Virus record (IMG/VR): IMGVR_UViG_3300027690_000008
Location: 1 to 38,174 of that record
Origin: a virus
Lineage: Duplodnaviria > Caudoviricetes
Strand: one strand, 5' to 3'
DNA: 38,174 nucleotides
Below the pieces are notes generated by a model that did not search any database, had not been told where the DNA came from, and saw only the letters and a program-made list of their open reading frames with translations. Numbering within the stretch: the stretch's first letter is position 1; every line of letters starts with the position of its first letter. Made by a program: the position numbers and the translations under genes. Shown here one piece after another: positions 1 through 38,124 of this stretch.

Positions 1-65
1 CATCCTTTTCCCTCCGGCTACAGGATTTTCATCAGATCATCCTTTACCAGAGCTGTTGTCTGAGG

Positions 66-121
66 GGGGGTCAATTTTCGGTTATCGTTTTGCCCTTTTG
101 GGGGTCAATTTTAGGTTATCG
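66..121 (+). repeat. 22-bp direct repeat pair GGGGGTCAATTTT(C/A)GGTTATCG
   Basis: Copies at 66-87 and 100-121, one mismatch, 34-bp period. Confidence 0.9.
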
Positions 122-125
122 AAAC

Positions 126-601
126 TAGCCCATCCCGGTAAGAAGGTCTCTATATAGAGGTGGCGCTTAAGTTGACCACTAACTCAGCATCGCAACACGT
201 TTAGGGAGACCCTGGGATAGACTCAGAGATTTATAGCCCATCCCGGTAAGAAGAATCTTCTATATGAGTTGGGCTATATTTTCACCTTCAGCACCTCCGC
301 AACCAGTCTCAGACCACCCTTGGATTGAGACCCAGAAACTTAAGGACCAGTTCTATATAAGAGAAAAAACTATAGAGAAGTGGTCTTTAACTCAGCATCG
401 CAACACGCTTAGGGAGACCCTGGGATAGACTCAGAGATTTAACGCCCATCCCGGTAAGAAGAATCTTCTATATGAGTTGGGCGTTATTTTCCCTAACTCA
501 CCTTCGCAACCAGTCTCAGACCACCCTTGGATTGAGACCCAGAGAAATAACACCGAGTTCTCTATAGGTTTTTCTCTATATAGGAAATGGCGTTATTTTC
601 C
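126..601. repeat. Array of five ~47-55 bp dyad-symmetric units at ~104-bp period, containing a 157-bp direct repeat (180-336 / 388-543)
   Basis: Dyads at ~126-171, 232-278, 340-390, 440-486, 545-598; linkers share CGCAAC...ACCCT(G/T)GGAT..AGAC(T/C)CAGA. Confidence 0.9.
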
Positions 602-604
602 CTC

Positions 605-881
605 TGCCACCTTTATGCCTCTCCTTTACAAGGGACTGTCATAAAGACTACCGAGAGACCCTCCTTCCTCTACCTCCTTTTAAAGAATCTTTTAACGGGA
701 ACCGTGGAGGAGGAGGGCGCTCAGTAGCCGCATTGCCACCTTATGTGTCTCCTTATGGTCTTCCCACTGCGTGGCCTTCATAAGGACTGCCATAAGGCCC
801 CATAAGCACAACCCTTCCCTCTGCCTCTTTTATGGTCTTCCACTATCGCCTGAACAGCGGCTTACGTGGCCCAACATAAGG
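605..881. repeat. Cluster of CATAA(G/A)G-like heptamers in both orientations
   Basis: Copies near 611, 640, 739, 751, 779, 791, 801, 828 and 875. Confidence 0.7.
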
Positions 882-1307
882 ACCCAGAGGGTATGTGTCT
901 TCCCAACCCAGGGGCAGCCGTAAGCGGGTTGCGAAGCGTCTTTAGCACCACCCCAGGACAGCATCCGGGCAGCAGTAGGAACCCTCAAAGGGAACCCATG
1001 GATAGGCTGAGGTCTTCCTCCATGTGGCCACCGCTGGGGACACTTCCAGGCCCGGCTGTCGCTGGGGTGGTCTTTTTCCTTTTGCCTGTTTGTCTGTGTG
1101 TGTATGGTTCGCCATCATGCCACCAGGCCAACGCAGAGGCCACACACGCGCTTTCCACGGGCACCCTTAGGCATCCCTTAGGCATCCCGTAGGCGCGGCC
1201 CAGACATCCCTTAGGCATCCCCAGGACATCCCCATTAACCACCATCACCATGAAACCCCCCACACTAACCATCAACACCATAATACGAAAGGAGCAACAC
1301 CACTCCC

Positions 1308-1952
1308 ATGCCAAAATATGCCAACATCAACGAGGCAGTCGAAGACAACCAAAGGCTCACCTGCAAGGTTCACGGCTGCACCCGTCCCCGTCACCGCATC
1401 TCAGGCTATTGCAAGCACCACAACCACATCAACAACCTCTATGGTTCCCCACACCATCGATGCATTACCAAGAAGGACTTCGCCATGGAGTACGTGGAGT
1501 GCCTCGGGGTAATCTGTAGCAACTTCAATGCCGGTCACCCGGGCATCCGCTATGGTCTCAAGTTCTTTCACCAGTGGCTCACTGATGCCTCCAACGGTAG
1601 ACCCTCTGTTCCTGGTAGATGGTCTGATAAAATCATGGACCAGTTCAGGCGCCTACATGATGCCGGGGTGGACCCCATAGACCTCCTGGCCACTTCTGCC
1701 GCCTTAGTCCTGATGCAGCATAGACGGCCCCAAAGTATCCGGGATGGTCGTCACCTGGTCTATGCTCTTGGTCTCAGACTGCTTCGGACTGCCCCCTATG
1801 CAGGGAAGGCCCGAGGCCCTCTGTCCAGGGAAATCGGTGCCCACGTTTGGGACAACCTCAAGACCCTCCTGGCCAATATCGCCGGGACTGTCATCAAGAA
1901 GGAACAGGAGCAAGACGAGACCCTCAGAGTCATGCATGCGCCCCTGTCGTAA
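1308..1952 (+). CDS. Hypothetical protein with N-terminal Cys/His zinc-binding motif
   Basis: 214-aa ORF, AAGGAG SD upstream; CKVHGC...GYCKHH motif. Confidence 0.75.
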   Translation: MPKYANINEAVEDNQRLTCKVHGCTRPRHRISGYCKHHNHINNLYGSPHHRCITKKDFAMEYVECLGVICSNFNAGHPGIRYGLKFFHQWLTDASNGRPSVPGRWSDKIMDQFRRLHDAGVDPIDLLATSAALVLMQHRRPQSIRDGRHLVYALGLRLLRTAPYAGKARGPLSREIGAHVWDNLKTLLANIAGTVIKKEQEQDETLRVMHAPLS

Positions 1953-1970
1953 CAAAGAGAAAGGAAAGAT

Positions 1971-2303
1971 ATGTCCTACACAACCCTACGTCTACCCGAT
2001 GATATCGAACTGTCCCTCATCCTGGTCCCTAAGCGGCTGTTCTCTTATGCTGCCTCTAATGCCGAGTTCAAACAGGTGACCGTCAAGGAGGCAGAGGCCC
2101 GGGGTATCATCAAGTGTAAATCCAGGCCGGAAGATGGTCTTGGGAACTGGACTCTTGAGGTCTATCAGGGTGTCGAGATGGTCTTCCGGTGCCGTCCTAA
2201 AGGCGTCCCTGGTCGCTTTACAGACGCCCCTGCCGCTGCCCAGGCTACTTTGATCCCTCAGGGTGTCTTGCCGAAGAGTCCCCCGGCTGTCGGTAGTCGA
2301 TAG
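1971..2303 (+). CDS. Hypothetical protein
   Basis: 110-aa ORF, GAAAGGAA SD, 18 bp after the previous stop. Confidence 0.6.
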   Translation: MSYTTLRLPDDIELSLILVPKRLFSYAASNAEFKQVTVKEAEARGIIKCKSRPEDGLGNWTLEVYQGVEMVFRCRPKGVPGRFTDAPAAAQATLIPQGVLPKSPPAVGSR

Positions 2304-2329
2304 CCTAAAAGCGACAACCCCGGTTGCCG

Positions 2330-2519
2330 TTTTCCCCAACCCACGGGAACCTGGAATCTGAAACCATGGTTTCACTTTTCCCCAACATACGGGAAGCTGG
2401 AATCTGATCCCATGGGATCACTTTTCCCCAACCCCCGGGAACCTGGAAGCTGCTGCCGGGGCAACCAAAAAGTGGTACCGACCGGTACCATTTCCCCCAA
2501 CCCCCGGGAACAAGGAAAC
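2330..2519 (+). repeat. Four ~29-bp repeats TTTTCCCCAACCC(C/A)CGGGAACCTGGAA(T/G)C with palindromic spacers
   Basis: Copies start at 2330, 2376, 2422 and 2491; spacers TGAAACCATGGTTTCA (2359-2374) and TGATCCCATGGGATCA (2405-2420). Confidence 0.9.
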
Positions 2520-2542
2520 AGAAAGGAGGTGATGTCTTCCCC

Positions 2543-2674
2543 ATGATGCCTACCACCACCATTACCGTTCACACCATCACATCAGGCGCGGCCTTTGGCC
2601 TTTGGTTGGTCTCTGCCGCCGGATATGTCTATTGGTCGCTTTACAGGCGCTGGTTGCTGTCTTTACGCAAGTAA
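2543..2674 (+). CDS. Small single-TM peptide, 43 aa (not in ORF track)
   Basis: Perfect SD AAAGGAGGTGA at 2522-2532; MMPTTTITVHTITSGAAFGLWLVSAAGYVYWSLYRRWLLSLRK: hydrophobic core with basic C-terminus. Confidence 0.6.
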   Translation: MMPTTTITVHTITSGAAFGLWLVSAAGYVYWSLYRRWLLSLRK

Positions 2675-2726
2675 TCACTTAACCCCCTACCATCACCCGT
2701 TCATAAAAGCTTTATCCAATCCCAAG

Positions 2727-2747
2727 ACACACACACACACACACACA
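2727..2747 (+). repeat. (AC)10 dinucleotide microsatellite directly upstream of an SD
   Basis: ACACACACACACACACACACA followed by TAAAAGGAG. Confidence 0.95.
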
Positions 2748-2767
2748 TAAAAGGAGAACAACACACC

Positions 2768-3604
2768 ATGATCGAAATCAAAACCCCTATGGGAAACGCA
2801 CGAGAAGGTAAACCGGCCCACCGTCAGTCCAACATCATGATGGATGGTGGTGCCGTAGAAGTCAACGGGCAGACCGGCCAAGTCCGTCACCTTCGGTCTC
2901 AGACCTTTAATCCCTCGGATCACCATGCCGCCTTCACGGGAATCCTGGGGACTGCTCGGACTCCGGCAGGTGCCCCCATCAACGACATGACGCAAATCAA
3001 TGACGACACCATCGTAAACATCAAGGGTGTCTCTGCCCCTGTCAGTTCTGCTGTTCGTGCTGGTCTTCTCGTGAAGCTTGCCGATGGCACCTATACTGAG
3101 CCTGGTGTCCAGAAACCGAACCAGACCATCTCTTACCAGGAAGGCCAACAGGCCAAAGCCAAGGCTGCCAAGGAGGCCACCAAGCGTATCAACCTGGTTG
3201 GCCATGGTAATGCCGCTGTGCTGCGTCAAATGAAAGCCAAGGCCGGTCCTGTCCAGGTAGACAACCTGATCAGCAAGGGTCTTGCCGCCGCCATCCCTGA
3301 GAAGAACCTGTCAGGGGAAACCGTAAAGGGGGACCGTCTTGCCAAAGAGATGACCCAGATGTTCCCCGGGTTGCCCCCTGAGGATGCCGTGGCATTCGTG
3401 GAGACCCTCTTGAATGAGGTCGAAGGCAATGCCGCCGATTACATCAGCAACAACCTGGGCGTCGATGGGGATGCAGTCATGGAGTTTGCGGCCACCAAGC
3501 TGTCGAAGAACGCACGGACCAGCATCATGACCGGCCTTTATTATGGTGACAAGACCACCATTCGCCGGTTGGTTCAAATGTATAAGAACGGGGAAAGAGC
3601 GTAG
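2768..3604 (+). CDS. Hypothetical protein
   Basis: 278-aa ORF, AAGGAG SD, protein-like composition. Confidence 0.8.
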   Translation: MIEIKTPMGNAREGKPAHRQSNIMMDGGAVEVNGQTGQVRHLRSQTFNPSDHHAAFTGILGTARTPAGAPINDMTQINDDTIVNIKGVSAPVSSAVRAGLLVKLADGTYTEPGVQKPNQTISYQEGQQAKAKAAKEATKRINLVGHGNAAVLRQMKAKAGPVQVDNLISKGLAAAIPEKNLSGETVKGDRLAKEMTQMFPGLPPEDAVAFVETLLNEVEGNAADYISNNLGVDGDAVMEFAATKLSKNARTSIMTGLYYGDKTTIRRLVQMYKNGERA

Positions 3605-3809
3605 CCGCTGTCGCTTCACAGACGCTGTAAAGACGCTCAAAGGTAGGCAAGCGGGGAAAAGGGAGAAGTGGAGGGGGATGTCTTAGGATGCCCTCTTCAC
3701 TTCTGCCGCTTTTAAGGCGCTTTTCCTTCTGCTGAGCTTTTGCACCAGGGCCTAAGTCGGCTGGCTGCCCCCACAGGCGTCCACGGCTGCCGTCGCTGTA
3801 CAGACGCTT

Positions 3810-4170
3810 TCCAGATTTCAACCTGGGCGTCAGCCGCCCTACAGGCGTCGGGGTTGTCCTGGTTGAGTTTGGTTAAGGGGCGCACTTGCCACTCTGAGTT
3901 TGGAAAAAGTGGACCGGTCGGTCCAGATTTCAACCTGGGCGTCGGGGTTGTCCTGGTTGAGTTTGGTTAAAGGGCGCACTTGCCGTTCGTTGGTTGGAAA
4001 AGTGGCCACCATGGTGGTCGATTTTATATTCTCATAAACAGTTGCGCCTGAGATAAGCATGTTGGTGTAGCTCTTGTTGAACCCAAACTCCCGCTTACAG
4101 TACCCGCTCCAGTTCCCCAGCGCTTTCCTCTCGTTCGCCGGGAGACACGCAAACTCTTCCTTGAGCTGTG
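3810..4170 (-). pseudogene. Decayed gene fragment with a PTNERQVRPLTKL motif (seen in mobile-element DNA-binding/methylase-associated proteins), partly duplicated
   Basis: WSGYCKREFGFNKSY...FPTNERQVRPLTKLNQDNPDAQVEIW; second diverged copy of the last ~80 bp at ~3811-3914 in another frame; no credible start. Confidence 0.5.
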
Positions 4171-4200
4171 AAAGGTGGTGACCAACACGGTAGAACGCAT

Positions 4201-4277
4201 CAGCCACGGCCACGGTACAGCCACGACCACGGTACAACGACGGCACTGGTACAGCCACAGTGTCGGTACAGCCACGG
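4201..4277 (+). repeat. Degenerate short repeats GGTACAGCCACG
   Basis: About 4-5 imperfect copies. Confidence 0.7.
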
Positions 4278-5000
4278 CAAGGCAAGACACACCCATAAAA
4301 AAGAGGCGCTTGTGGTGGGCGTCTTCTCTCTCTCTCCTTCCTGTGTGTCTTGCCTTGCGGTCGCTGTAAAGACGCTGTCGCTGTACAGGCGCTGAGGCCG
4401 GACTCGGGGATGATGGTGATCCCACGAGGGCTTGCAGTCAAATCGTCCGAATCGCACGGTTTGAGTATTTTCGCACATTTACAGTGCCTGGAATTGGTGT
4501 CACGTTTCGTGACGGTAATTTTTTGTGAGCGTTTCCCGGCACCATTGGGCCTGACCCGATGAATCCCCGGGGCAGCTTCCTGATGGGCATGACGTCACGT
4601 TTCGTTACGCCATCGGACCTGACCCAAATAGTGCTTGGGGCAGCTTCCTGGTGGACCTGAGGCGCTTAATAGACGCCCCAGCTTCCTGATGGACAGGGTG
4701 TCGGTGTAAGGTGCCGGAATAATTGTTGCCTGTAGCATTAGTACATCCGCTCAGGAATACCATCAGCAATCCTGATAGTATTTTTCCGTCGTCATCTAAG
4801 GCGCTTAATAGACGCCCCAGCCTGATGGACCAAGCGTCAGTATTGCCGACACTTCCCCCTGTCGCTGTAACAAGCGCTGTCACAGCCACGGTGTGGGTTA
4901 AACCCACCTCATCCCTGTCGAGCTTTCCCCAAAACGTCAGGACTGCTGAGGTTTTGCCCCAGGAATACCATCGCTAATGACGATAGTGCTTGACAGTCCC

Positions 5001-6134
5001 TCACCTCCTTTCGAACACCTCATCAGCCACGCAGACAGCCTTCCTCAGTGCCCCATTGACCAAGTGGGCATACCGTTGCGTCATGTCGAGACTACGGTGC
5101 CCCAGGAGTTCCTTGAGGGTATAGATGTCGACCTTCCCCGAGGAGGCCAGATACGAAGCATAGGTGTGTCTGAGGTCATGGAACCGGAAGTTCTCCAGCT
5201 TTGCCTTTTTTCGTATCCGTTTCCAGACACACTCGAAGCTCTTGAAATAGTTCCCGGAAAGGGAAGGGAAGACCCAATCCGACACCTTCAGCTCATGGCA
5301 CCTCTTCAGGACAACCAAGGCATTACTGCCCACGGGAAGTGTCTGAGTCCGTTTGCTCTTTGTGGTCTCTGCCGTATACGACACCAGGCCATTCTTGAGG
5401 TCTACGTTGTCCCAGGTCAACCCCAGGATTTCCCCTCTTCTCTTTCCTGTGAAGAGCGCATAGCGAATCACCAGGACGGCCCTCTCGTTTGAGTCCCAGG
5501 AGTCCAGGACATCCAGGAGACGCCCCATCTCATCACCTGAGAGCGCCCTGGTGACCCTGTTGTCAAACCTGGGGGCATCTACCTTGTTGCAGGGATTGGG
5601 GACGGTATCGGGGCAGACACCCTGCTTCATGCTCCAGTTATAGAGGTGTCGGATCAAGGCGAAGACTTGCTTGATGGTCGCCGGTCGATATGTCCTGTTG
5701 GTCCTGGGAGAGGGTGTCGACCGCATGTCATCAAGGAGGGATTGGATATCGGCAGGTCGAACCTTGTCCATAGGCTTGGACCCGAGGACCGGCTTGATAA
5801 ACTGTTCCCACCTCTGTCTGTCACTTGCCCCTGTCCGTTTGTTGGCCATGGCCCACTTGATGTACCTGTCCCAGGCATCAGACAGCTTCGGGAAGGGACG
5901 CTTCAAGGGGACCACACCTGAGGCATCGAGTGCCTTCATGGTCCTGAACTTGGCCTCGACTGCCCGGGCCGTGTCTAAGGTGTCGGCTGTCTGAGTCATG
6001 CGCCGACCATCCGGCATACGGACACTCACACGGTAGACCCGGCGACTCTCCAGGTTGGCACCACAGCCGGGGCACTTCTTTTTGCCAAGCTTGAACTCCT
6101 TCTTACAGGCAAGACAGCGAACGAGAATAGCCAC
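5001..6134 (-). CDS. int: Tyrosine recombinase / phage-type integrase with N-terminal zinc ribbon
   Basis: Catalytic R (KRRGEIL), K (TKSK), HDLRH, LGH, TQRY; CLAC...CPGC at N-terminus; GTG start at 6134 after AAAGGAGG is preferred to 6203. Confidence 0.95.
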   Translation of the reverse strand: MAILVRCLACKKEFKLGKKKCPGCGANLESRRVYRVSVRMPDGRRMTQTADTLDTARAVEAKFRTMKALDASGVVPLKRPFPKLSDAWDRYIKWAMANKRTGASDRQRWEQFIKPVLGSKPMDKVRPADIQSLLDDMRSTPSPRTNRTYRPATIKQVFALIRHLYNWSMKQGVCPDTVPNPCNKVDAPRFDNRVTRALSGDEMGRLLDVLDSWDSNERAVLVIRYALFTGKRRGEILGLTWDNVDLKNGLVSYTAETTKSKRTQTLPVGSNALVVLKRCHELKVSDWVFPSLSGNYFKSFECVWKRIRKKAKLENFRFHDLRHTYASYLASSGKVDIYTLKELLGHRSLDMTQRYAHLVNGALRKAVCVADEVFERR

Positions 6135-6288
6135 TTTTGGACCTCCTTTAGGGTGTGTAAATAGGGTGTAATCAGACCCCCTAAAGGTGCCCCTCAGAGC
6201 CACTCCTGGGCCTCTCCTGGGCCTCTCATCGACCCCTCAAGCAACCCCATAGCCTTCCCACTATCTGCCGTAATTACAGCCGCTTGGT

Positions 6289-6310
6289 CCCCCTCTTGAC
6301 CCCCTCTTGA
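6289..6310. promoter_or_regulatory. Tandem 11-bp repeat CCCCCTCTTGA, candidate integrase arm-type sites
   Basis: Two adjacent exact copies between the int start and the att core. Confidence 0.5.
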
Positions 6311-6358
6311 CCCTCCTTTCGATTGCCGCCCGATGCCTCAGCACAGTAGAGGGACGTC

Positions 6359-6405
6359 GACTACGAATCCGTAGGTCGCAAGTTCGAATCTTGCCGGGCG
6401 CGCCA
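6359..6405 (+). pseudogene. 3' half of tRNA-Arg(ACG), att-site duplication
   Basis: Anticodon loop CTACGAA, TCCGT, variable AGGTC, T-arm GCAAG-TTCGAAT-CTTGC, acceptor strand CGGGCGC-G-CCA; upstream half is non-canonical. Confidence 0.9.
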
Positions 6406-6494: not shown

Positions 6495-6546
6495 TGTAAC
6501 GCGCCGGATGGTCTTGGACTGCGTGCCGGATGGTTTAGGACTCGAT
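6495..6546 (+). mobile_element. Transposon-like end: TGTAACGC followed by two 22-bp-period repeats
   Basis: GCCGGATGGTCTTGGACT (6503-6520) and GCCGGATGGTTTAGGACT (6525-6542). Confidence 0.5.
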
Positions 6547-6558
6547 TCGCACACATGT

Positions 6559-6623
6559 GCTTAAGAATGAGCTGTGCAGTTCGGCCGCTTTTTGGCTAGG
6601 TCGGCACCAGCGAATTCTTAGCT
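6559..6623 (-). other. attC-like site with AAG/CTT core
   Basis: R'' AGCTAAG, 5-nt spacer, L'' GCTGGTGC ... L' GCACAGC, 5-nt spacer, R' CTTAAGC; extrahelical G in L''; R'' overlaps the stop codon. Confidence 0.75.
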
Positions 6624-7574
6624 TTCTGATTTAATGCGGGAGTATGTCCTGCCGGATAATACATTCTTTACCTGCCTAAGATTTTTTGCAGAAATTTCCT
6701 CGGCAATTATGTCCGATGTTTTTCCAAGAGCTGCACCTAAACGTATTATACGGACCTGTCTGGCAGTGAGGCGACCACTATGTCCACATATCACGCGTTC
6801 AACGAAATCTACATCTGACGCCCAACGCGCAGCGCAGAGTGGGTTAGGCCGACCCTCAACTGATTCCCTATCTGATAATTTTTCTAAAAGCCGATCTCGA
6901 TCTTCAGAAGTTCTTGGTTGAAGGCCAAGACTGGCAAGGTAGGCAAAACCTGCTCGCCCGCCGGGAATCATATTGAGGCCCAGTGGGTAAAGACTGACCA
7001 TCCCAACCCATTCTTCCTCAAACTCAAGCGCTGCTTCATGGTCAAGCTCGCAAATGAAAACTTTATGCAGAACCTGGACTGATAGATGCTGCCTTAGTGC
7101 CTGATGGAAAAGAAGATTTGATCCAGATTTCGCTGACGAAACATGCTGCGAATATCGATCAAACCAACGCTGTTTTGTCATTCCGACATATCCTAGTGGC
7201 GTTTCTGTCTGAAATGAATGCAAGTAGACCAAATATTTTTTTGATATCTTTGTGTATCCTTTAAATATCGGATTCAATGGGAGGTCGATCTGGGCTCTAT
7301 TATGCGCAATCGATGAGCAAGTCAAAATGAGGTGCCCATTTAAATTAACCAAATCATCAGGTGTACACACTCTCACTTCAGGTGGTGTAGCCAAGGCATC
7401 GACTTCAATCCAAAAGTCTAAAGATCTGTATACCCTATTTCCAGCCGGTAATAGTTTTGCTCCTGGACCTTTTGAAAATATTCCATCTAGATGTCTTGCG
7501 AGTGAATAGGGATTAATTGCCCATGATGGTACTAATTCATTTACATTATGGACATTGATGTTATGGAATTTCAT
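6618..7574 (-). CDS. GIY-YIG-family nuclease with C-terminal HTH-like segment (gene cassette)
   Basis: LVYLH...GYVGMTKQR..R..QH...E...E...GLN pattern; C-terminal LTARQVRIIR...VLSGRTY. Confidence 0.75.
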   Translation of the reverse strand: MKFHNINVHNVNELVPSWAINPYSLARHLDGIFSKGPGAKLLPAGNRVYRSLDFWIEVDALATPPEVRVCTPDDLVNLNGHLILTCSSIAHNRAQIDLPLNPIFKGYTKISKKYLVYLHSFQTETPLGYVGMTKQRWFDRYSQHVSSAKSGSNLLFHQALRQHLSVQVLHKVFICELDHEAALEFEEEWVGMVSLYPLGLNMIPGGRAGFAYLASLGLQPRTSEDRDRLLEKLSDRESVEGRPNPLCAARWASDVDFVERVICGHSGRLTARQVRIIRLGAALGKTSDIIAEEISAKNLRQVKNVLSGRTYSRIKSES

Positions 7575-7584
7575 CTCTTATCGT

Positions 7585-7645
7585 AGCTAATGAAAAGATG
7601 CGGGACAGCATACTCCTCATTGTCCCCACCAGCGACAGCTTAAGT
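7585..7645 (-). other. attC-like site with AAG/ATT core
   Basis: R'' ACTTAAG, L'' GCTGGTGG, central GGACA..TGTCC stem, R' ATTAGCT; R'' complements the TTAAGT at the start of the same cassette. Confidence 0.65.
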
Positions 7646-7649
7646 TTTG

Positions 7650-8315
7650 TTATATAGATACCCTTGCCATAAATTCGTTTACGGCATTGGAAAATAATAC
7701 TACTTGCTCTTTAGTATATTCATCATATTTTCCGTGGGCAGCCTTATTCCTGAGATCTAACCATGCAGTAACGTTTTTTTCATCCAGCTTATTGTAAACA
7801 TTTGATTTTGCAAGTTCGGCATTAATCAGTGATGCTTTTTTAGGGATTAGCTTCCCGTTTTTTTCAATGTGAGTGTCAATGTTGTATTTAAGGCATAGGT
7901 TCCTCAGATGTTTCTCCAAAACGCTACCAATCATTACCGCTGCTGGGTCTTTATAGCCTTCAGTCAATAAGTGCTCCGCCATTTCGAGAAAATCATAAAA
8001 AATCTCAGCAGACAATAAACCTCTTGTGGTATTGAACCAGCCGCCATTCAATTCCATTTTCGCGGCATTAAGGATTCCTACAGCCTGCTCAACGTCTTCA
8101 GGATGCTCAATTTTCACTTGTTCATTAAACTCGCTAAAATAAGGATGATATTCACCGAAAAGATTCTTCAGGAGAGACAAACATGCTGCCCTAAGTCCAC
8201 GGAATTTACCAGTATCAACATAAGACCCCCACTCCAGCTTTCTTGTGGTGCTCAGAACTTCAATTGATTGTTGTAATAATTCATCGATTCTTCTAAGGAA
8301 ATCCTCTATTTTCAT
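7650..8315 (-). CDS. HEPN-domain (DUF4145-like) protein (gene cassette)
   Basis: PAAVMIGSVLE...LRNKAAHG (RxxxxH) motif. Confidence 0.8.
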   Translation of the reverse strand: MKIEDFLRRIDELLQQSIEVLSTTRKLEWGSYVDTGKFRGLRAACLSLLKNLFGEYHPYFSEFNEQVKIEHPEDVEQAVGILNAAKMELNGGWFNTTRGLLSAEIFYDFLEMAEHLLTEGYKDPAAVMIGSVLEKHLRNLCLKYNIDTHIEKNGKLIPKKASLINAELAKSNVYNKLDEKNVTAWLDLRNKAAHGKYDEYTKEQVVLFSNAVNEFMARVSI

Positions 8316-8340
8316 AATCGAACATCCTTATTTCGTAGAA

Positions 8341-8398
8341 ACTTAACGCCAAATTTTGCGGCGCGGTCCTTTGCGTCCTCGCCAGTTCTTTGTTGGAG
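8341..8398 (-). other. attC-like site, canonical AAC/GTT core, degenerate L boxes
   Basis: R'' CTCCAAC ... GGCGAGGACGCAAAGGACCGCGCC ... R' GTTAAGT. Confidence 0.65.
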
Positions 8399-8406
8399 AT
8401 CTTGGA

Positions 8407-9924
8407 TCATAGCTGAAGATCTTTTACGTATTCCATGACTTTATCAAGTAAATATTTCATAATATGTCCTGGGGTAAGTGTATTTTGCGGTTTGCGGGTG
8501 CCTGCATCTGCCTCTAAATATTTGCCAGTTGAGCGCCATGTTAATTCAACACAGAAAACACTTCCATCTTCAAATGGCAGTTGGATATCAGGACAAAGTT
8601 GGCTTCCGGGTAAGTTTTTCTTTTCACTTATCACCTGAACCTCTTTGCCATTTCGATTAATATAATCTTCAATCGCTATACCAAGAGCTTTATTTAATGA
8701 TTTATCTCCTTTGGCGGCCAACTGCTGAATTGCAATGTACTCTCTGGCCATTTCATCGGAAGTTTCACGGACCCGGATTGTTAGTGGTGATTCAGGATTG
8801 ATAAATGCTTGACCAATACGAACCCTGCTCACCGCATCTGCGCAATTGTCAGCAGACTCACTCCGTTTTTTTAGATTGGTCTTTACATTATCATCCCCAT
8901 AGCAGCGGATTGCAGCTAATGCAGTGTTTGGAGGCAACTCGAAAAGTCTTACATCAAGTATTCGCATCAAATAGGCCATATCAGCCCTTCGTGCACGCCA
9001 GTCATTAAGGTATGCTGATTCATTCTTATCGTTATCAAGAAACTCCGCGATTTTATCAATATCAATTCTGTTGCGTGTGCCTTGTGTCAAATTACTGATA
9101 GTTCTATCTAGCTCTTTTAAATCATCGCCAGCTACAACAACCCAAACCCGCGGTCTAATGCGCGTTTTTAATAAGCGGAAAGTAGATGCATTCCTTTCTG
9201 AAGATAGAGAATTAAGGCGTGAATAAAATTCACCAATGGTTTCGCTATTTCTTGCACAATCCTTAGCGAGACCATAACCGATACCAAAAGATTCTAAATT
9301 TTCACCAGCATTTAGAGCTCTTGTTGTAAGATCGGCAACGTTAACATATGATTCTTTCGGCAGCCCTTGAAACTTAAATACCTGTGATCGAGTACCAAGG
9401 AGGCTGTCACGCCCTATATGCCACGCTATTCCAGCAATATGTTCAGCAGCTTTTGGATCAGTTATTGGCCACACAACCAATACTTTGCCCTTTTCTGTTC
9501 TGAAAAGACTACGTATCGATTCAAAACATATTTTGAGTTCCTCGTCCTTTTCATTCGGGTTATCACGATCATGAATTATATAAAGACGGTTCTCTTTTCT
9601 ATGTAAGGAATCACGCTCAATAAAAGTCGGAATATCAGTTATCAGTTTGTCTTTATTTATACGTACTACATCAATATTTTGGGAAAAATATCTTAAGCCA
9701 TGCAAAAATGTTGTCTTGCCAGAGCCAGAAACACCATGCAAAATTTGCAGCCTGCCTATTCCAGATGTATGGACTTCTCTTAAGATCGTTTCAATTTCTA
9801 TGCATGCTGAATCAACTGGTTGAATAATACCGGAGATATCACATCCCGTCCTCTGAGATTCAGACTCCAACTTTTCAAACCTTCCAGGAAGGTTAAGATC
9901 TTTTAAGAAATCACCATTCGACAT
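8407..9924 (-). CDS. P-loop ATPase with putative C-terminal PD-(D/E)xK-like domain (gene cassette)
   Basis: Walker A GVSGSGKTT; Walker-B-like LYIIHD; C-terminal PDIQL...CVELTWR. Confidence 0.75.
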   Translation of the reverse strand: MSNGDFLKDLNLPGRFEKLESESQRTGCDISGIIQPVDSACIEIETILREVHTSGIGRLQILHGVSGSGKTTFLHGLRYFSQNIDVVRINKDKLITDIPTFIERDSLHRKENRLYIIHDRDNPNEKDEELKICFESIRSLFRTEKGKVLVVWPITDPKAAEHIAGIAWHIGRDSLLGTRSQVFKFQGLPKESYVNVADLTTRALNAGENLESFGIGYGLAKDCARNSETIGEFYSRLNSLSSERNASTFRLLKTRIRPRVWVVVAGDDLKELDRTISNLTQGTRNRIDIDKIAEFLDNDKNESAYLNDWRARRADMAYLMRILDVRLFELPPNTALAAIRCYGDDNVKTNLKKRSESADNCADAVSRVRIGQAFINPESPLTIRVRETSDEMAREYIAIQQLAAKGDKSLNKALGIAIEDYINRNGKEVQVISEKKNLPGSQLCPDIQLPFEDGSVFCVELTWRSTGKYLEADAGTRKPQNTLTPGHIMKYLLDKVMEYVKDLQL

Positions 9925-9943
9925 TTTTAGTTCCCCTTGGGAT

Positions 9944-10005
9944 TTCTACCGCCGCTTTTCAGCGGGCGCGGCTTTTTGCGACCTGCTGCAAAAGCTTGGT
10001 TACGC
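9944..10005 (-). other. attC-like site with AAC/GGT core
   Basis: R'' GCGTAAC, 5 nt, L'' TTTTGCAG ... L' CTGAAAA, 5 nt, R' GGTAGAA; extrahelical G. Confidence 0.75.
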
Positions 10006-10015
10006 AAATTTTTGG

Positions 10016-10954
10016 TTAGCATATGGGAATACGTTTTAATAACCTTTTAAGGCAATTTTCCTTTTCATTTTCATCTTTAATTTTGCAAAATTCATTAAAT
10101 ACCAGTTCCGCTCTGGTCTGATCGCAGATGGGGAAAAGTTGTTTGAGAAAAATATTACGATCACCATCATTACTTGGTATACTTTTCAAGGCAGAGACTA
10201 ATACATCCCTGACAATTTGTTCAAAATCAGCGATATTCTTTAAAGCTTCTCTGTGGTTAGGGCCTATTTTGCTACCATGCACAATAGTTGAACGAACACC
10301 GTAAAAATTTCTAAGCATACGCTTTTGGGCTTCGAATTCAATACCATTTATCAATTTAACAGCACGCTCGCGTAGCCGCCTCCCGACGAAATCCGACTCA
10401 GGTACCAAGGTAGCTTCCAACGCTGTCATGTAATCAACGATACGATCAAGTTGATCATGGGCCGGATTATGCTCCTTTCCACCTCCGTACATGAAAAAAC
10501 GTCGAGCTACTTTGAACCAATCTGAGGACCAATTTTCTTGAGACGCGATCTCCGAAGCAAATGCATTGAAACTGGAACACTCTTCAGTATTGATTTCATA
10601 TCTCAAAGTTGTGGTTGTGGATACCATTACGGGATAGGGTAACTGGCAGGAAAGCTTGCCATCAGCGTCTTCGACACACGGCTGAACAAAAAATAAATCG
10701 CCTGTCTTGTAAAGCCTTAATAGTAGTAATGTGTCTTCGACATCCGAAGAAATCTCATTCCAATCCGCTGAGTTATCATATTCTCTTTTGTAAATCCAAT
10801 CACCATAGAAAACCCATGCTTTCGAAAATAGACGTTGAGCCTTTTTCAAAGCGCCAGTGTCACCACGGCTGATTTCGGTTAGTCGAAAGTTATTGAAAAT
10901 AAGCTCGTCAGAATTTGAATTGAGCTTTTTTACGAGAGCAAAGCTATTACGCAT
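10016..10954 (-). CDS. ApeA-like HEPN domain protein
   Basis: IVDYMTALEATL...FYGVRSTIVHG (RxxxxH). Confidence 0.75.
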   Translation of the reverse strand: MRNSFALVKKLNSNSDELIFNNFRLTEISRGDTGALKKAQRLFSKAWVFYGDWIYKREYDNSADWNEISSDVEDTLLLLRLYKTGDLFFVQPCVEDADGKLSCQLPYPVMVSTTTTLRYEINTEECSSFNAFASEIASQENWSSDWFKVARRFFMYGGGKEHNPAHDQLDRIVDYMTALEATLVPESDFVGRRLRERAVKLINGIEFEAQKRMLRNFYGVRSTIVHGSKIGPNHREALKNIADFEQIVRDVLVSALKSIPSNDGDRNIFLKQLFPICDQTRAELVFNEFCKIKDENEKENCLKRLLKRIPIC

Positions 10955-11017
10955 TTTATATTCTCACTCACGAATCATCCTTTGTATATTAAGCCGGAAA
11001 TTAAACAGGCCAAATTC

Positions 11018-11080
11018 CGTCATCCCGGACTTGATCCGGGATCCAGTATTTATACTGGTTTCCGGCTTCCCCGGAAAAAC
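11018..11080. repeat. REP-like extragenic palindrome pair
   Basis: CGTCATCCCGGACTTGATCCGGGATCCAGT ... ACTGGTTTCCGGCTTCCCCGGAA. Confidence 0.65.
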
Positions 11081-11130
11081 AAGACATGGTAAGAATTATT
11101 GCCAAGTAAATAATATAAATATTATCCGGC

Positions 11131-11192
11131 TGACCGCCAATTTTCGTAATTATGAGTATTTCGCGGAAATCCGCCCAATTCCCGAATTAATG
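11131..11192. promoter_or_regulatory. Candidate prophage end with two transposase-binding-like repeats
   Basis: TGA-CCGCCAATTTTCGTAATTATG (11134-11154) and CCGCCCAATTCCCGAATTAATG (11171-11192). Confidence 0.5.
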
Positions 11193-11326
11193 TTCAAATT
11201 TTATGAAACAAGTTTTCAGAAGGCCATTTTAAACTGAATCAGATCGTCAACTAATTGTGAATTCCGGAAGACATCTTTAACTTTCAGCCTTTTCTTATTT
11301 TTTTGTACCCTCTGATCCGTTTCAAG

Positions 11327-12082
11327 CTATCGAACGATCAGCAGTTCTTGAGCTTTAACGCATTTCTGTTGGGCTGAGCTGTACGACAGGTTGACCGTTC
11401 TGATGTTGAATATTTTAAACACTTGTCGCATTTCCGGATGATCGTTGATGCTGAGGATAAAATGCGACTTCAGGCTGGATAGAGCTTCAGCCAGTTCTTG
11501 AAAATCGGCCAGCTCAAAATTGTGCTGGTAATATGGCGCCTTATAGTATGGCGGGTCAAGGAAAAACAACGTGCCCGGCTTATCGTAGGTTTCTAAAAAG
11601 CGCTGCCAGGGCAGATGCTCGATGGTCACGCCGGCCAGTCTCAAATGGACCTCGGAAAGCTCCTCCTCGATGCGCAGCAGGTTGATCCGCGGCCGGCTCA
11701 TCGGCGAGGCCCCATAGGTCCTTCCCCGCACCCTGCCGGCAAAGCAGAGCCGCTGCAGGTAATAGTAGCGGGCCGCCCGTTGAATGTCGGTTAGGCCACC
11801 GGCCGCCTGCTGGCGTTTCCAATCCTCGAACCACTCCCGTGAGGCGAGCAGCCATTTAAACTGTTTTAAAAACTCCTCCAAGTGGTTTTGAAGCACCCGA
11901 TAAAAGCAGATCAGGTCGCTGTCCAGGTCGTTGATGACTTCGTATTTGGATGGCTCTTTGCGAAAAAATACCCAAGCCGCCCCTGCGAACACCTCGCAGT
12001 AGGCTTTGTGCTCGGGCATCATTTCGATGATGGTTTGGGCCAGTTTGGATTTGCCGCCGATGTAGGCTAAAGGGCTGTTCAT
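11327..12082 (-). CDS. DNA adenine methyltransferase (Dam/D12 class)
   Basis: SPLAYIGGKS, EVFAGAA (motif I), DPPY (motif IV); ATG at 12082 after AAGGAG. Confidence 0.95.
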   Translation of the reverse strand: MNSPLAYIGGKSKLAQTIIEMMPEHKAYCEVFAGAAWVFFRKEPSKYEVINDLDSDLICFYRVLQNHLEEFLKQFKWLLASREWFEDWKRQQAAGGLTDIQRAARYYYLQRLCFAGRVRGRTYGASPMSRPRINLLRIEEELSEVHLRLAGVTIEHLPWQRFLETYDKPGTLFFLDPPYYKAPYYQHNFELADFQELAEALSSLKSHFILSINDHPEMRQVFKIFNIRTVNLSYSSAQQKCVKAQELLIVR

Positions 12083-12367
12083 TGGGCGCTCCTTGAGTAT
12101 ATCCAATTGAGTGTGATATGAGCCCCTTGCTCGGTCCGAGCGGGGGGTCGTCCATTTTTGGATGGGGGGCTGGTGTGAACAGCTCTTCGCCCCCTGGGAA
12201 GTGGCAACTCCCCAGGGGGTGGCCTCCTTAATTATTCACATCTGTTTTTGCCTCCCTATTTTTTGATTCCCATGTCGGTTGACCGCAGGGTTGGTCCGTT
12301 GACACCGGGCATTGTTGTGATTTCAGGTTTGATGGCCGATGCTAAAAATGCTTGACGGACTGGGGTG

Positions 12368-32312: not shown

Positions 32313-33730
32313 AGCACCCGCCTTCCCACACCGAATCGGCCCGCAAGAGAGGTGAACCGCTCGCGCAACGCCTCGGCCACGGACGTTTTGGGCGCCGTGG
32401 CCGCATGCACCGCCAGGGCCAGCGCCCAGAACCGGTCCGCATGGCCGTCTTCCGACCGCTCGGCCATGAAGCGCACATTGCCCGCGGCCGTGGTCTGCTT
32501 GGTCACGGCGCGCAGGTCGGCCCGGATCTCGGGATCAAAGGGAATGCGCAGCTTCTTGTCTTCCATTTTGCCTTTGACCGGGTAGGCCAGCTCTTCTTTG
32601 ACGCGCACCGAAAAGTTGACCAGCTCGATGCGGCCGGCGCCGAACTTGTCCTGGGCGTCGTCGCCCCAGCCGATCCCGATGCCCGTGTAGTCAAAACAGG
32701 TCCTGTTGATCAGCGCCAGCCAGGGCCAGATGATCTTTTCCTGCTCGGACTTGCGCATGTTTTTAAGGGCGATGACGGCGCGGGTGTAAAGCACATCGCC
32801 CAGCTCTTCGAGCACCCACAGCACGGTCAAATCCTTCTTGCGGCCGATGTCCAGGCCGGCATAAAGACGGCGCTTTTTGTTCCTGGCATCTTCCAGGGCG
32901 AGCTCCCAGGCCTCGCCGGCCGCATATTCCACGCCGGCGATCAGGTCATATTCCAGGAAGGCCACGTCATCGTCGCCGGGGATGCACATATACTCCTGCA
33001 AAAAGGACTCTTCGTCGGCGCATCCGGATTTGACGAAATCGTAGTACTCGGCCTCGTCCATCTCCTGCTGTTCGGCATCGGCGGGCAGGGCCTGCTGCAG
33101 TTTGTACAAAAAGCCCTGGTTCAGCGCGTCTTCCAGCGTCACCCGGTGCAAGCTGATGCGCTTGGGATTGCCCTTTTCGCGCGCCTCGCGGATCAGCTGG
33201 TTGAAAAAATTGCCGCTGCCGCGATGGGTGGAGATCACTTCCAAAAGGCCGCCCCAGGTCAGGCCCGGATAGGCGATGGACCACATCTTGCGCGGATCCC
33301 CCAGCAGGGCGAACTCGTCGAGCACGCGACCGCCGCGCTTGCCCGCCTGGGCGTCCGGATTGCTGCTCATCGAGTAGATGCACCGGCCGGAGGCAAAACG
33401 CAGGGCAAGGGCGGTCAACCGCTTGGCCGCATCGACCACCACTTCGCCGAGGTCCTCGGCGGCCAGCTGGAAGACCTTCGTCCACATCTTGCAGTCATCG
33501 AGAAACAGGCGCGCCTGGATCTCGTCACGGGAAGAGATCCATTGGTCCCACCTGGCCCCGGCCTTGGCCGTGCGCTCCACGGTGGGATAGGCCGTGCTCC
33601 AGGACAAACCGATCTGCCGGGCCTTTTCCATCAGTTTGAGCCGGCTGGTGTCACGGATCCACCGTTCCTGGTAGAGCAGGAAAAGCGCATCGGGGTTCGA
33701 TGGCACTATCTTGGCGTTGCCTTTTTTCAC
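32309..33730 (-). CDS. Terminase large subunit (Mu gp28-like)
   Basis: YQERWI.D...EKARQIGLSW, LDEFA, ISTH.G, GLDIGR, D.TGIG, GHADRFWALALA. Confidence 0.93.
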   Translation of the reverse strand: MKKGNAKIVPSNPDALFLLYQERWIRDTSRLKLMEKARQIGLSWSTAYPTVERTAKAGARWDQWISSRDEIQARLFLDDCKMWTKVFQLAAEDLGEVVVDAAKRLTALALRFASGRCIYSMSSNPDAQAGKRGGRVLDEFALLGDPRKMWSIAYPGLTWGGLLEVISTHRGSGNFFNQLIREAREKGNPKRISLHRVTLEDALNQGFLYKLQQALPADAEQQEMDEAEYYDFVKSGCADEESFLQEYMCIPGDDDVAFLEYDLIAGVEYAAGEAWELALEDARNKKRRLYAGLDIGRKKDLTVLWVLEELGDVLYTRAVIALKNMRKSEQEKIIWPWLALINRTCFDYTGIGIGWGDDAQDKFGAGRIELVNFSVRVKEELAYPVKGKMEDKKLRIPFDPEIRADLRAVTKQTTAAGNVRFMAERSEDGHADRFWALALAVHAATAPKTSVAEALRERFTSLAGRFGVGRRVL

Positions 33731-34281
33731 TCGGCCATCCTCAACACATCGCGCCGGATAATTTTAATGGTTTCATCCGAAACGCCGGCCTGCCGGGCGG
33801 TCTTGCCCACCGCCTCGGCGGCCTCTTCCAGGGCGCGTTTCCGGATCTGCTCCTCCACCCGCGCGTTCTTCTCCGCCGCCTGTTCGAGGCGATGCACCGC
33901 AATCGCCAAATTCTTCAACATCTTGGGGTCGACATTGTCTTTCTCGCTGGCGTTCATGGCGGCGCGGAAAGCCAGGTTGCGCACGATTTCATTGAGCAGT
34001 TTACCCACGGCACCAGCCGGTTCACTGCCCAGCTTACCGATCCACATGGAGGCGATCTCGCGCGATTCGCGCAGCTTGGCGCCCACCTCTTCCATGCGGA
34101 CCGCATAACGGTTGACCGCGCTCTTGCTCAGCCGGCCGGGATGTCCCTCTTCGGCCAGGATGGCATTGATCCGTGCCGTCGCCTCAAGTTGCGTCACGCG
34201 CGGATCGCGCAGCAGCTCCTGGAGCCGGGTGCGGATATCATCCGGCAGGCGGTCGATGGTTGAGGGTTGCTGTTTAGCCAT
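33727..34281 (-). CDS. Terminase small subunit (Mu gp27 / DUF3486)
   Basis: STIDRLP...LSKSAVNRY motif. Confidence 0.88.
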   Translation of the reverse strand: MAKQQPSTIDRLPDDIRTRLQELLRDPRVTQLEATARINAILAEEGHPGRLSKSAVNRYAVRMEEVGAKLRESREIASMWIGKLGSEPAGAVGKLLNEIVRNLAFRAAMNASEKDNVDPKMLKNLAIAVHRLEQAAEKNARVEEQIRKRALEEAAEAVGKTARQAGVSDETIKIIRRDVLRMAE

Positions 34282-36809: not shown

Positions 36810-37130
36810 TTAAAACATTTTGCGCTGCTTGTAAATGGCGCCATCGCAGCTTTTAGGGGGGTCTGCCATTTGGCCGGCCACGATCGCGCGGATCCAGCGC
36901 ACCGTCAGGTTATACTTCAACGCCAACGCATGATAGTTGCGGCCGTTGAACTCGGCTCGGATCTTTCGGTTGCGTGCGGCCGTGGCCAGCCGGTCGGGCA
37001 GAGGGATATGAATGCGTTCGCCGCCCATCTGCGCCGACAATGCCAGCAGCCCTTCAAGGCCGATGATTTCGGCGATCTGCCTGCAGTCGTCCGGCAGATC
37101 ATCGATGTTTATGTCCAATGCGTCCGGCAT
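36810..37130 (-). CDS. mor: Mor/C-family transcription activator
   Basis: GGERIHIP...RNRKIRAEFNGRN...LALKYNLT.RWIR.IV. Confidence 0.9.
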   Translation of the reverse strand: MPDALDINIDDLPDDCRQIAEIIGLEGLLALSAQMGGERIHIPLPDRLATAARNRKIRAEFNGRNYHALALKYNLTVRWIRAIVAGQMADPPKSCDGAIYKQRKMF

Positions 37131-37131
37131 G

Positions 37132-37422
37132 CTACCTCACAGACAATACGCACAGGTCGGTCGGCAGACCGAAACTGCCTGGGGGCATGATGTGCGTGAT
37201 TTCCCGAAACGCCTGGCGGCCGGTAAAGTTTTCATTTTCAGGGTCCCATTCGCGCAACAGCAGCCAATCGCCCACCTGGTAGTCACGATCGCAGCGGCGG
37301 ACCTCGCACCGCTTGCCCTTGTGGATCAACGCCTCGAATTGTTCAGGCCATGATTTAAGCTCATGGATGGCCCGGATTTCCGAGCCGAAACAATCAAGGA
37401 GCCAGGATACCAATTTCTCCAT
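37132..37422 (-). CDS. ASCH/PUA-like (DUF3850) protein
   Basis: HELKSWPEQF...GK..EVR..DRDYQVGD.L.LREW. Confidence 0.85.
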   Translation of the reverse strand: MEKLVSWLLDCFGSEIRAIHELKSWPEQFEALIHKGKRCEVRRCDRDYQVGDWLLLREWDPENENFTGRQAFREITHIMPPGSFGLPTDLCVLSVR

Positions 37423-37435
37423 CAAGACACCTCTA

Positions 37436-37852
37436 TCATCCCGTAAAGCGCCCGTGCCGCCGGGCATCGTATTCCAGGGCGGCCACGATCTTATGCAGCT
37501 GGTAGGCATCGCACCACTCCACCCGGTCCACCTTGAACATGTGCCGGGCCATGCCGTGGACGTAGTTCCAGGGACGGGCGGCCTCGGCCAGATAGGCCTC
37601 GATTTTGCTCAGCATGGCCCGCTTGTCAGGCCCACTTTTCTTAAAATCCGGTTTGTTCGGCCGGCGTTTTCGGGTAAAGCCCTTGAGCCGCAGCTCTTTT
37701 AAAAAATCGCTGGCCTGGGCCGCACTGATGTCGCAGGTGCTGCTTTTCCCGAAACGGGCCATCAACATGTCGGCCTTGGTCTCCTTGTCGATGCCCAATT
37801 TGCTGCAGGCGATGCCGATCAGCTGGCGCTGGCTCTTTGTGCTTGGGATCAT
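37436..37852 (-). CDS. gemA: Mu gp16 / GemA family regulator
   Basis: IA...LGID.......L...GKSS...L...GF...KIEA.L......W.Y. Confidence 0.8.
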   Translation of the reverse strand: MIPSTKSQRQLIGIACSKLGIDKETKADMLMARFGKSSTCDISAAQASDFLKELRLKGFTRKRRPNKPDFKKSGPDKRAMLSKIEAYLAEAARPWNYVHGMARHMFKVDRVEWCDAYQLHKIVAALEYDARRHGRFTG

Positions 37853-37932
37853 CTTTTTTCCTTCCGGCTGCTCGTCAGGCCGCCCGCGCCACCGGGCGGC
37901 GATCCTGCGCGAGAGCGGGATTTCGCGCGGGA

Positions 37933-38124
37933 CTACGCCTTGATCTCCTGTATATCGGTGATCGGCTGCCACTGCCGGCAACTCGGGCAGACGACGCGAT
38001 CGATGCGATACTGCATCCCCGACGTGGCCGTCTTGATGATTTTTTTACGATCAACCACAAAGACGGTTTCCGGGCATCGCTCGTTTTCACATCGTGCTGT
38101 GACCCGGTAATATGGTTTTCTCAT
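37933..38124 (-). CDS. Small zinc-finger protein
   Basis: CENERC...CPSC; start MRKPY after a G-rich SD. Confidence 0.6.
   Translation of the reverse strand: MRKPYYRVTARCENERCPETVFVVDRKKIIKTATSGMQYRIDRVVCPSCRQWQPITDIQEIKA

Follow-up and report, generated by a model that had tools for sequence, protein, structure and literature searches.

Clusters of attC sites lacking an integron integrase (CALINs) were defined as a class in PMC4889954 and have been described in both temperate and virulent phages (Qi et al. 2023, PMC9892861). We analysed a window of 38,174 nucleotides, the whole stretch of DNA considered here, which corresponds to positions 1 to 38,174 of the IMG/VR virus record IMGVR_UViG_3300027690_000008 (Duplodnaviria; Caudoviricetes). 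Four minus-strand open reading frames (ORFs) of 312, 505, 221 and 318 amino acids (aa) are each followed by one attC-like site, termed S1 to S4 in that order, and an initial annotation of the sequence had proposed either a frozen, domesticated defence array or the cassettes of an integron integrase with altered core specificity. It is very probable, judging from the sequence, that these are four host-integron cassettes lodged at the attachment end of a prophage and frozen by decay of their attC sites, with their genes intact as predicted anti-phage cargo. On the same grounds the array is best described as a CALIN-like relic with pseudo-attC sites, which is a known kind of element, rather than as a functional set of attC sites.

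The array resembles the phage CALINs of Qi et al. in that a cluster of attC sites without intI lies in a phage or prophage and the single-gene cassettes are co-oriented. Five of the six sites tested in that study recombined with attI1, whereas here three of four cores are broken, two sites are unfolded, and the block lies between a Dam gene and the phage att end. A second parallel is the Tragantia homologue of Marinobacter (bioRxiv 10.1101/2024.07.02.601719), in which a defence-type gene is followed by a near-canonical attC with a crossover mismatch; this pseudo-attC was judged likely non-recombinogenic and was missed by IntegronFinder. That case concerns one system in a chromosomal defence island, whereas here there are four consecutive prophage cassettes and the defence role is predicted. 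The engineered attC-CTT/attI1-CTT pair of Frumerie et al. (PMC2811028) has an AAG/CTT core that is paired in the folded bottom strand, as that of S4 can be, but it also has a matching partner; this array holds none, and the C of S4 likely stems from loss of a G. Lastly, secondary-site insertion of cassettes at GWT, followed by their domestication, has been documented (bioRxiv 10.1101/2022.09.11.507474) and offers a route into non-integron DNA with fixation by loss of attC, although the present sites are point-mutated, not deleted.

The four sites are as follows.

9944-10005, minus strand: S1, attC of the 312-aa cassette, with one core change (AAC/GGT) and the 9/8-nt L-box subtype; covariance model score 11.9 bits.
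8341-8398, minus strand: S2, degenerate attC of the 505-aa cassette, AAC/GTT, with 4 L-box changes; 13.9 bits.
7585-7645, minus strand: S3, degenerate attC of the 221-aa cassette, AAG/ATT, with 2 L-box mismatches; colinear with the site of locus L335.
6559-6623, minus strand: S4, degenerate attC of the 318-aa cassette, AAG ... TCATTC-TT, which still folds; 25 bits, E 5e-4.

The coordinates of all four sites hold on the minus strand, and their model or profile scores above chance, together with colinearity with canonical sites, indicate that they are real attC-like sites. A covariance model (CM) trained on 45 canonical sites, which were chosen from 60 mainly by length (up to about 90 bases), returned four matches at E<=5 over the 38-kb window, namely S4, S2, S1 and a 30-base fragment within a gene; S3 was not recovered in this whole-window search. 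A CALIN calls for at least two attC sites recognised by a CM, and of the four sites this model found one at E<0.01, two with default filters at E<=1 and three at E<=1 without filters. The expectation that standard attC models may miss such sites is partly supported by this model, which missed S3 and detected S2 and S1 at looser cut-offs only. With a profile of the left arm, S2, S3 and S4 scored 13.4, 11.1 and 16.3, and among 26,000 backbone positions a single one reached more than 10; owing to its shifted register, S1 received 0.9.

Predicted folds of the bottom strand separate the sites into two pairs. S1 and S4 form attC hairpins (−14.8 kcal/mol, z −2.0, and −11.9 kcal/mol, z −1.5) in which all seven of the L''/L' pairs are present. 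S3 reaches −6.0 kcal/mol (z −0.87) with 5/7 such pairs and an unpaired R box, and S2 has eroded L boxes and no attC fold (z 0.0); both fold more weakly than 49 of the 51 comparison sites. A paired AAC/GTT core is found in S2 alone, so that, as had been pointed out from the sequence, the only canonical core sits in a site with eroded L boxes. S1 and S4 each carry the single bulged base previously described as a clean extrahelical G. The bulge is there, but the G belongs to the top strand; on the recombinogenic bottom strand the base is C, as is normal for the family.

Alignment with natural relatives suggests how the unusual cores arose. All four sites are colinear from end to end with natural canonical sites (in loci L324, L331, L335 and L339), as expected of sequences derived from attC. 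S3 aligns without a gap to the canonical site of L335, with which it shares the same L'' and the right spacer TTTTC, and S4 aligns to the canonical site of L339 with a single gap that falls exactly at the G of GTT. The register of S1 is set by the natural 9/8-nt L-box subtype (L324), which leaves one T-to-G change; a compensated ACC/GGT core, suggested by the predicted fold, was discarded since this subtype fixes the core as AAC/GGT. Of 84 sites, 72 have a C directly before GTT, and in the subtype of S4 the spacer is as a rule 6 nt long with C as its last base. Given this spacer C, loss of the G therefore generates CTT automatically. The presence of AAG in two adjacent sites (S3, AAG/ATT; S4, AAG/CTT) is confirmed, but for S4 the colinear alignment favours, over the compensatory CTT once proposed, a 6-nt spacer, TCATTC, followed by TT with the G likely lost. 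Hairpin-templated correction is a possible cause of the pairing in S4.

S3 and S4 share the L box GCTGGTG, which assigns them to a common AAC/GTT family. A search of 209 genomes for this L box gave 44 matches in 31 genomes, of which 11 lacked the family stem, compared with 9 control hits; 32 of the 33 family-like matches had AAC/GTT and one had AAT/GTT. A distinct GCTGGTG family with AAG cores was rejected in these genomes, as the members have AAC/GTT and, of four rows with AAG, two had no model hit and two were dismissed by eye. A search of 401 genomes gave 28 matches in 20 of them, including two AAG rows judged by eye to lack the family inner stem. Contigs with S4-like sites in run X1, the only public run holding this DNA, likewise have canonical cores (two loose ends shown).

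The homologous cassettes point in the same direction. Among the 30 loci closest to the 318-aa gene (of 160), two were the window's own sequence; in the 28 others TAAC directly follows the gene in 13 (10 distinct) and AAG in none, and three distinct loci have AAC/GTT sites detected by the CM. Seven loci of the 221-aa gene comprised three with AAC/GTT (one by eye), one with AAT/GTT and three without a site. The best reading is that the odd cores arose by decay of a common canonical attC family. This bears directly on the proposal that the cassettes belong to an integrase of altered core specificity, to which we give hardly any credence. Non-canonical cores make up three of four here, compared with 5 among the 172 neighbouring sites of viral contigs, and this excess is what an altered enzyme would account for; the four cores differ from one another, however, so that no single new specificity fits, and the initial annotation had itself named canonical cores in homologous cassettes as evidence of simple decay. 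No intI gene lies in the record, and all five tested genomes with a 318-aa homologue encode an IntI above the family cut-off, the adjacent sites seen being canonical.

Experimental work on recombination also speaks against an altered enzyme. IntI1 requires an identical first core base, of any kind, in both partners (PMC2811028), so that this base is read through homology to the partner and not by the enzyme, and the triplet itself has been described as not important per se (PMC5027507). The attC-CTT x attI1-CTT reaction proceeds at 0.97 of wild type, compared with 1.5e-3 with wild-type attI1 (PMC2811028, Table 4). Since ordinary IntI1 recombines matched CTT sites, no altered enzyme is needed to explain the CTT of S4; with mixed cores and canonical homologous cassettes, the altered-specificity proposal is not sustained.

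The same data raise a different possibility, that the 221-aa and 318-aa cassettes came from a natural pool of C-first AAG/CTT cassettes, served by an ordinary IntI and an attI of the CTT type, before being combined with G-type cassettes and decaying. Such an origin would suit the two neighbouring AAG sites, of which one pairs with CTT in the predicted fold, the roughly 1000-fold insulation of a CTT pair from wild-type attI1 (PMC2811028, Table 4) and a parallel C-to-G change that is improbable by simple chance. We nevertheless hold this origin to be highly improbable: S3 has ATT and not CTT, the C of S4 aligns with the spacer C of its canonical relatives, a mismatched recombination would be required at the S2 junction, and no such cassettes appear in the collections surveyed. 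There is likewise only a slim chance that an orthogonal C-docking pool, fully workable with an ordinary IntI, kept about 1000-fold apart from the GTT pool and undercounted by standard attC screens, has left its first natural trace in S3 and S4. The GTT core is assumed to be universal, an assumption that a natural AAG/CTT pool, if real, would overturn; the evidence speaks against such a pool.

The survey of cores elsewhere was as follows. In bacterial and metagenome loci, AAC/GTT was found in 82 of 91 modelled sites, a set derived from 99 hits after removal of one truncated hit, the two weakest and duplicates, and 45 of which were the training sites. In viral loci the count was 240 of 245, for which 279 of 293 hits were used and duplicates then merged. 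Non-canonical cores occurred singly (9/91 and 5/245), with ATT, GGT, GAT, GTG, GTC, TTT, AAT and GAC each seen once or a few times, and AAG or CTT in 0/336 modelled sites (0/91 and 0/245). The CM favours canonical cores, yet the score of S4 exceeds the cut-off applied. When viral contigs were scanned directly, the AAG/CTT pattern matched once, in a sequence that is not an attC by the CM, against an estimated ~250 matches for the AAC/GTT pattern. The generic AAG/CTT pattern matched 70 times in the 401 genomes, compared with ~57 control hits (both hand counts), and none was attC-like by eye; across the overlapping sets of 401 and 209 genomes no AAG/CTT attC was found. Scans of viral contigs for the GGTG box were uninformative because they found neither AAG/CTT nor AAC members. 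No natural AAG/CTT site was found in the literature searched, which is weak evidence given the limited coverage. As a separate observation, about 250 stretches of the viral collection fit a strict canonical attC pattern, giving 245 distinct sites in 79 loci (L342-L421), many of them dense arrays; either cassette arrays in phages are far more frequent than the 21 cases published so far would suggest, or such arrays have often been mis-called viral.

At the five junctions the first bases read A, G, G, A and C, and only S1 x S2 match. The second core position of S1 is unpaired, and an unpaired base at that position lowered one tested site from 2.2e-3 to 6e-6 (PMC2811028). The first-base rule was measured for attC x attI, and we extend it here to excision. 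Because only S1 and S2 match, S2 is unfolded and the second position of S1 is unpaired, the array would be locked; it likely contains no working pair of sites, as far as sequence can tell.

We envisage that cassettes with AAC/GTT cores would have been assembled by an ordinary IntI, likely in a host integron, and that the block may then have entered the slot between Dam and the arm-type repeats of the prophage, through secondary-site insertion by IntI or through illegitimate recombination. Later mutations would include C-to-G in two R'' boxes, G-to-A at two junctions and loss of the G at S4, with further changes being T-to-G at S1 and L-box erosion at S2 and S3. Mismatched first bases and unpaired cores would make excision rare, and the retained cassette genes would shield the lysogen from other phages.

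Two features lie at the left end of the array.

11139..11150, minus strand: left junction of the array, A/TTACGAAAATT, start of the 312-aa cassette, with first base A and not G; identified by complementarity to R''.
11017..11047, no strand: core of a REP-like inverted repeat within the leader of the 312-aa cassette; depth 464 compared with 45, with loose ends, in run X1.

At 11150/11149, 10 of 11 bases are complementary to the R'' of S1, the only such position among 4988, and the array therefore spans about 6559-11150. This start of the 312-aa cassette at 11149 is the strongest junction signature and had been overlooked. Each cassette consists of a single ORF followed by an attC, with a start complementary to its own R'' in 10, 6, 8 and 6 of 11 bases for the 312-, 505-, 221- and 318-aa cassettes, that is, strongly in two and weakly in two. 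The circular-cassette signature earlier ascribed to the 221-aa and 318-aa cassettes accordingly stands for the former (8/11, equalled at 10/4988 positions) and is weak for the latter (6/11, 189/4988). As an alternative R'', ATATAAC at the stop codon of the 221-aa gene was set aside, since ACTTAAG fits the cassette start better. An attI or GWT target at the left junction was unrecognisable; the target junction now reads A/TT at its left end and (C)/TT at its right end, so that a GWT target is no longer demonstrable. The leader of the 312-aa cassette also contains nested REP-like inverted repeats (10984-11105) that are multi-copy in run X1 and have BLAST matches in L315 and L316. The repeat is probably a host repeat, and may be a host miniature element inserted before or after capture.

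The block occupies a defined position in the prophage. The record is a virus contig that carries terminase, portal, capsid, tail, baseplate and Dam genes, and the following features delimit the slot.

11327..12106, minus strand: Dam-type methyltransferase, the last conserved phage gene before the cargo slot; PF02086, 104 bits; 69 related viral loci.
6503..6536, minus strand: direct repeats A(A/G)ACCATCCGGC of the prophage end; the same repeats directly follow Dam in the cargo-less related prophage L004.
6327..6401, plus strand: tRNA-Arg(ACG)-like attachment site, 3' half intact and 5' half diverged; Rfam tRNA 32.5 bits.
5001..6203, minus strand: tyrosine integrase (400 aa) of a neighbouring element beyond the tRNA copy; PF00589, 100 bits.

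The cargo block lies between Dam and the two direct repeats, which adjoin the tRNA-Arg(ACG)-like site, and its G+C content is 0.41 compared with 0.62. The repeats are prophage DNA outside the cassette array and are probably arm-type integrase sites. ARAGORN called no tRNA gene at 6327..6401, but this stretch aligns with the tRNA-like sequence after Dam in prophage L004 and appears to be a hybrid att site. In L004, the Dam of which is 79% identical, repeats and tRNA directly follow Dam and the slot is empty; other contigs of run X1, one of them with a Dam homologue, have the repeats in common up to 6543-6551 and then different DNA. The block is thus a low-GC accessory segment at a variable position beside att, absent or different in relatives, as in a moron slot. 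The 400-aa integrase was considered as an IntI and rejected (TIGR02249, 29-34 bits against a cut-off of 265), and no intI was found in the whole record (best TIGR02249 match 29 bits, same cut-off), as in a CALIN. An assembly error as the origin of the odd sites was rejected, as 6507-11930 is covered by contigs of run X1 at a depth of 43-46 with no differing bases; run X1 may be the source sample, so this match counters assembly error only and is no second occurrence. The attC families concerned occur in the phylum of a Geobacteraceae genome. Since this single phylum was sampled, we only presume that the host belongs to it, and we take it to be the Desulfobacterota.

The four cassette genes are as follows.

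10016..10954, minus strand: 312-aa protein with a C-terminal HEPN-like fold and R-x4-H, a predicted RNase; motif and structural matches.
8407..9924, minus strand: 505-aa P-loop ATPase with a C-terminal PD-x(n)-ExT motif; AAA_33, 23 bits, below the cut-off.
7650..8315, minus strand: 221-aa HEPN protein with R-x4-H, a predicted RNase; PF18735, 22.5 bits, below the cut-off.
6618..7574, minus strand: 318-aa predicted GIY-YIG-like nuclease; phrog_314, E 1.6e-7.

All four ORFs are full length relative to their homologues, and ~4.0 kb are free of stops and frameshifts. R-x4-H is the characteristic motif of HEPN proteins. In the 312-aa protein R221 and H226 are invariant in 45 rows; the best structural matches are HEPN domains (Z 8.1, root-mean-square deviation (rmsd) 3.4, 111 residues), the Z being middling for a helical bundle. 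It had no Pfam match, its family had no PDB sequence match, and a plasmid search for the family returned no DNA context. Many homologues of the 221-aa protein carry PF18735, and R189, N190 and H194 are invariant in 38 rows. Both proteins thus combine a HEPN fold or profile with R-x4-H, and RNase activity is predicted for them. In the 505-aa protein GxSGxGK, P445 D446 and E460 are invariant in 46 rows, its homologues give weak AriA, PtuA and LmuB matches, and we take the PD-x(n)-ExT motif to be nuclease-like; one locus of this family was found, without attC. The 318-aa protein has 222 homologues of equal length. A GIY-YIG nuclease has conserved Tyr, Arg and Glu; in this protein Y117, Y129, G131 and E186 are invariant, and its model matches the I-TevI catalytic domain with probability 0.99 and rmsd 2.5, yet at E 0.16. 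With Foldseek, neither of the two protein models searched had a match at E<=0.001. Distant homologues (L079, L082, L084-L090, L103) are not in cassettes, and by eye a helicase-like Walker A ORF follows or overlaps them, which suggests that this gene family originated in a phage or a plasmid.

Several observations weigh against the interpretation of a frozen defence array. None of the four cassette proteins exceeds a curated defence-family cut-off in Pfam or PADLOC, the 505-aa protein alone giving weak ATPase matches, and the defence role is therefore inferred from domain type and position, on which basis we regard the genes as predicted anti-phage cargo. The parallel C-to-G change in adjacent R'' boxes has no counterpart in the 336 sites elsewhere, and in a simple simulation random decay produces it with a probability of 0.6-3.7% (11-50% for some parallel core change). 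S4 keeps 7/7 L-box pairs and a normal folding energy, and may still be able to recombine with a C-bearing partner. The core overall has not changed significantly more than the L boxes (5/24 compared with 6/60, p 0.28). An attC-like site occurs in only 2 of the 69 Dam-related loci, many of which end right after Dam; the sites in those two (L005 and L006) are weak, and by tblastn the two share only Dam with the window. On balance, intact ORFs beside decayed sites, the lack of intI in the record and the empty slot in L004 uphold the frozen, domesticated defence array proposed at the outset.

The same origin could also be followed by purely neutral loss, leaving a decaying relic on a possibly cryptic prophage with genes of no current benefit. 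This would fit the lack of a significant excess of changes in the core over the L boxes and the absence of promoter signal above chance (13 found, 11.4 expected). We consider it improbable, as ~4.0 kb of ORFs remain intact at homologue lengths whereas the sites carry many changes, the predicted catalytic motifs are retained, and the changes cluster at the docking pair. The latter has changed in 4 of 8 bases compared with 7 of 76 others (p 0.009; p 0.03 with G/C bases only), in a small post hoc test in which L boxes were counted for pair-breaking changes only. G-to-A also occurs at the left end of the array and in both the L005 and the L006 site. Preferential mutation of the docking pair is a hint, and not a demonstration, of selection to lock the cassettes; that prophages actively lock captured defence cassettes against the host integrase, as would follow if the hint holds, is a tentative and rather doubtful idea.

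The locus provides a clear natural example of integron cassettes becoming fixed prophage cargo, such arrays can drop under the thresholds of attC models and escape counting, and the four uncharacterised nuclease-like genes are candidates for anti-phage tests.

Other prophages carry cargo at the same position. L005 and L006, whose upstream ORFs are arranged in the same way (in L005 a tape-measure gene was confirmed), contain different defence-type cargo directly after Dam with several eroded attC-like sites (L005:10771-13851 and L006:10771-15927). One has a match to LmuA, the other to T5orf172, Mrr and AbiTii together with a DDE transposase, and each has one weak AAC/ATT site detected by the CM (20.2 and 13.3 bits). 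No attC-like hit was found in L010, L023, L025, L026 or L028. These loci suggest that the Dam-adjacent position is a recurrent slot for cassette capture.

Two further observations concern the remainder of the window. Positions 1-6405 hold a second element with a G+C content of 0.55 and its own tyrosine integrase, on the opposite side of the hybrid tRNA-Arg site, which suggests that two elements integrated in tandem at one tRNA; none of the remaining ORFs tested from this second element matched Pfam or PHROG. In the prophage, Mu-like Gp27, GemA and late-activator genes (33727-34281 and 36810-37981) are combined with a non-Mu portal and capsid module and a tRNA att end.

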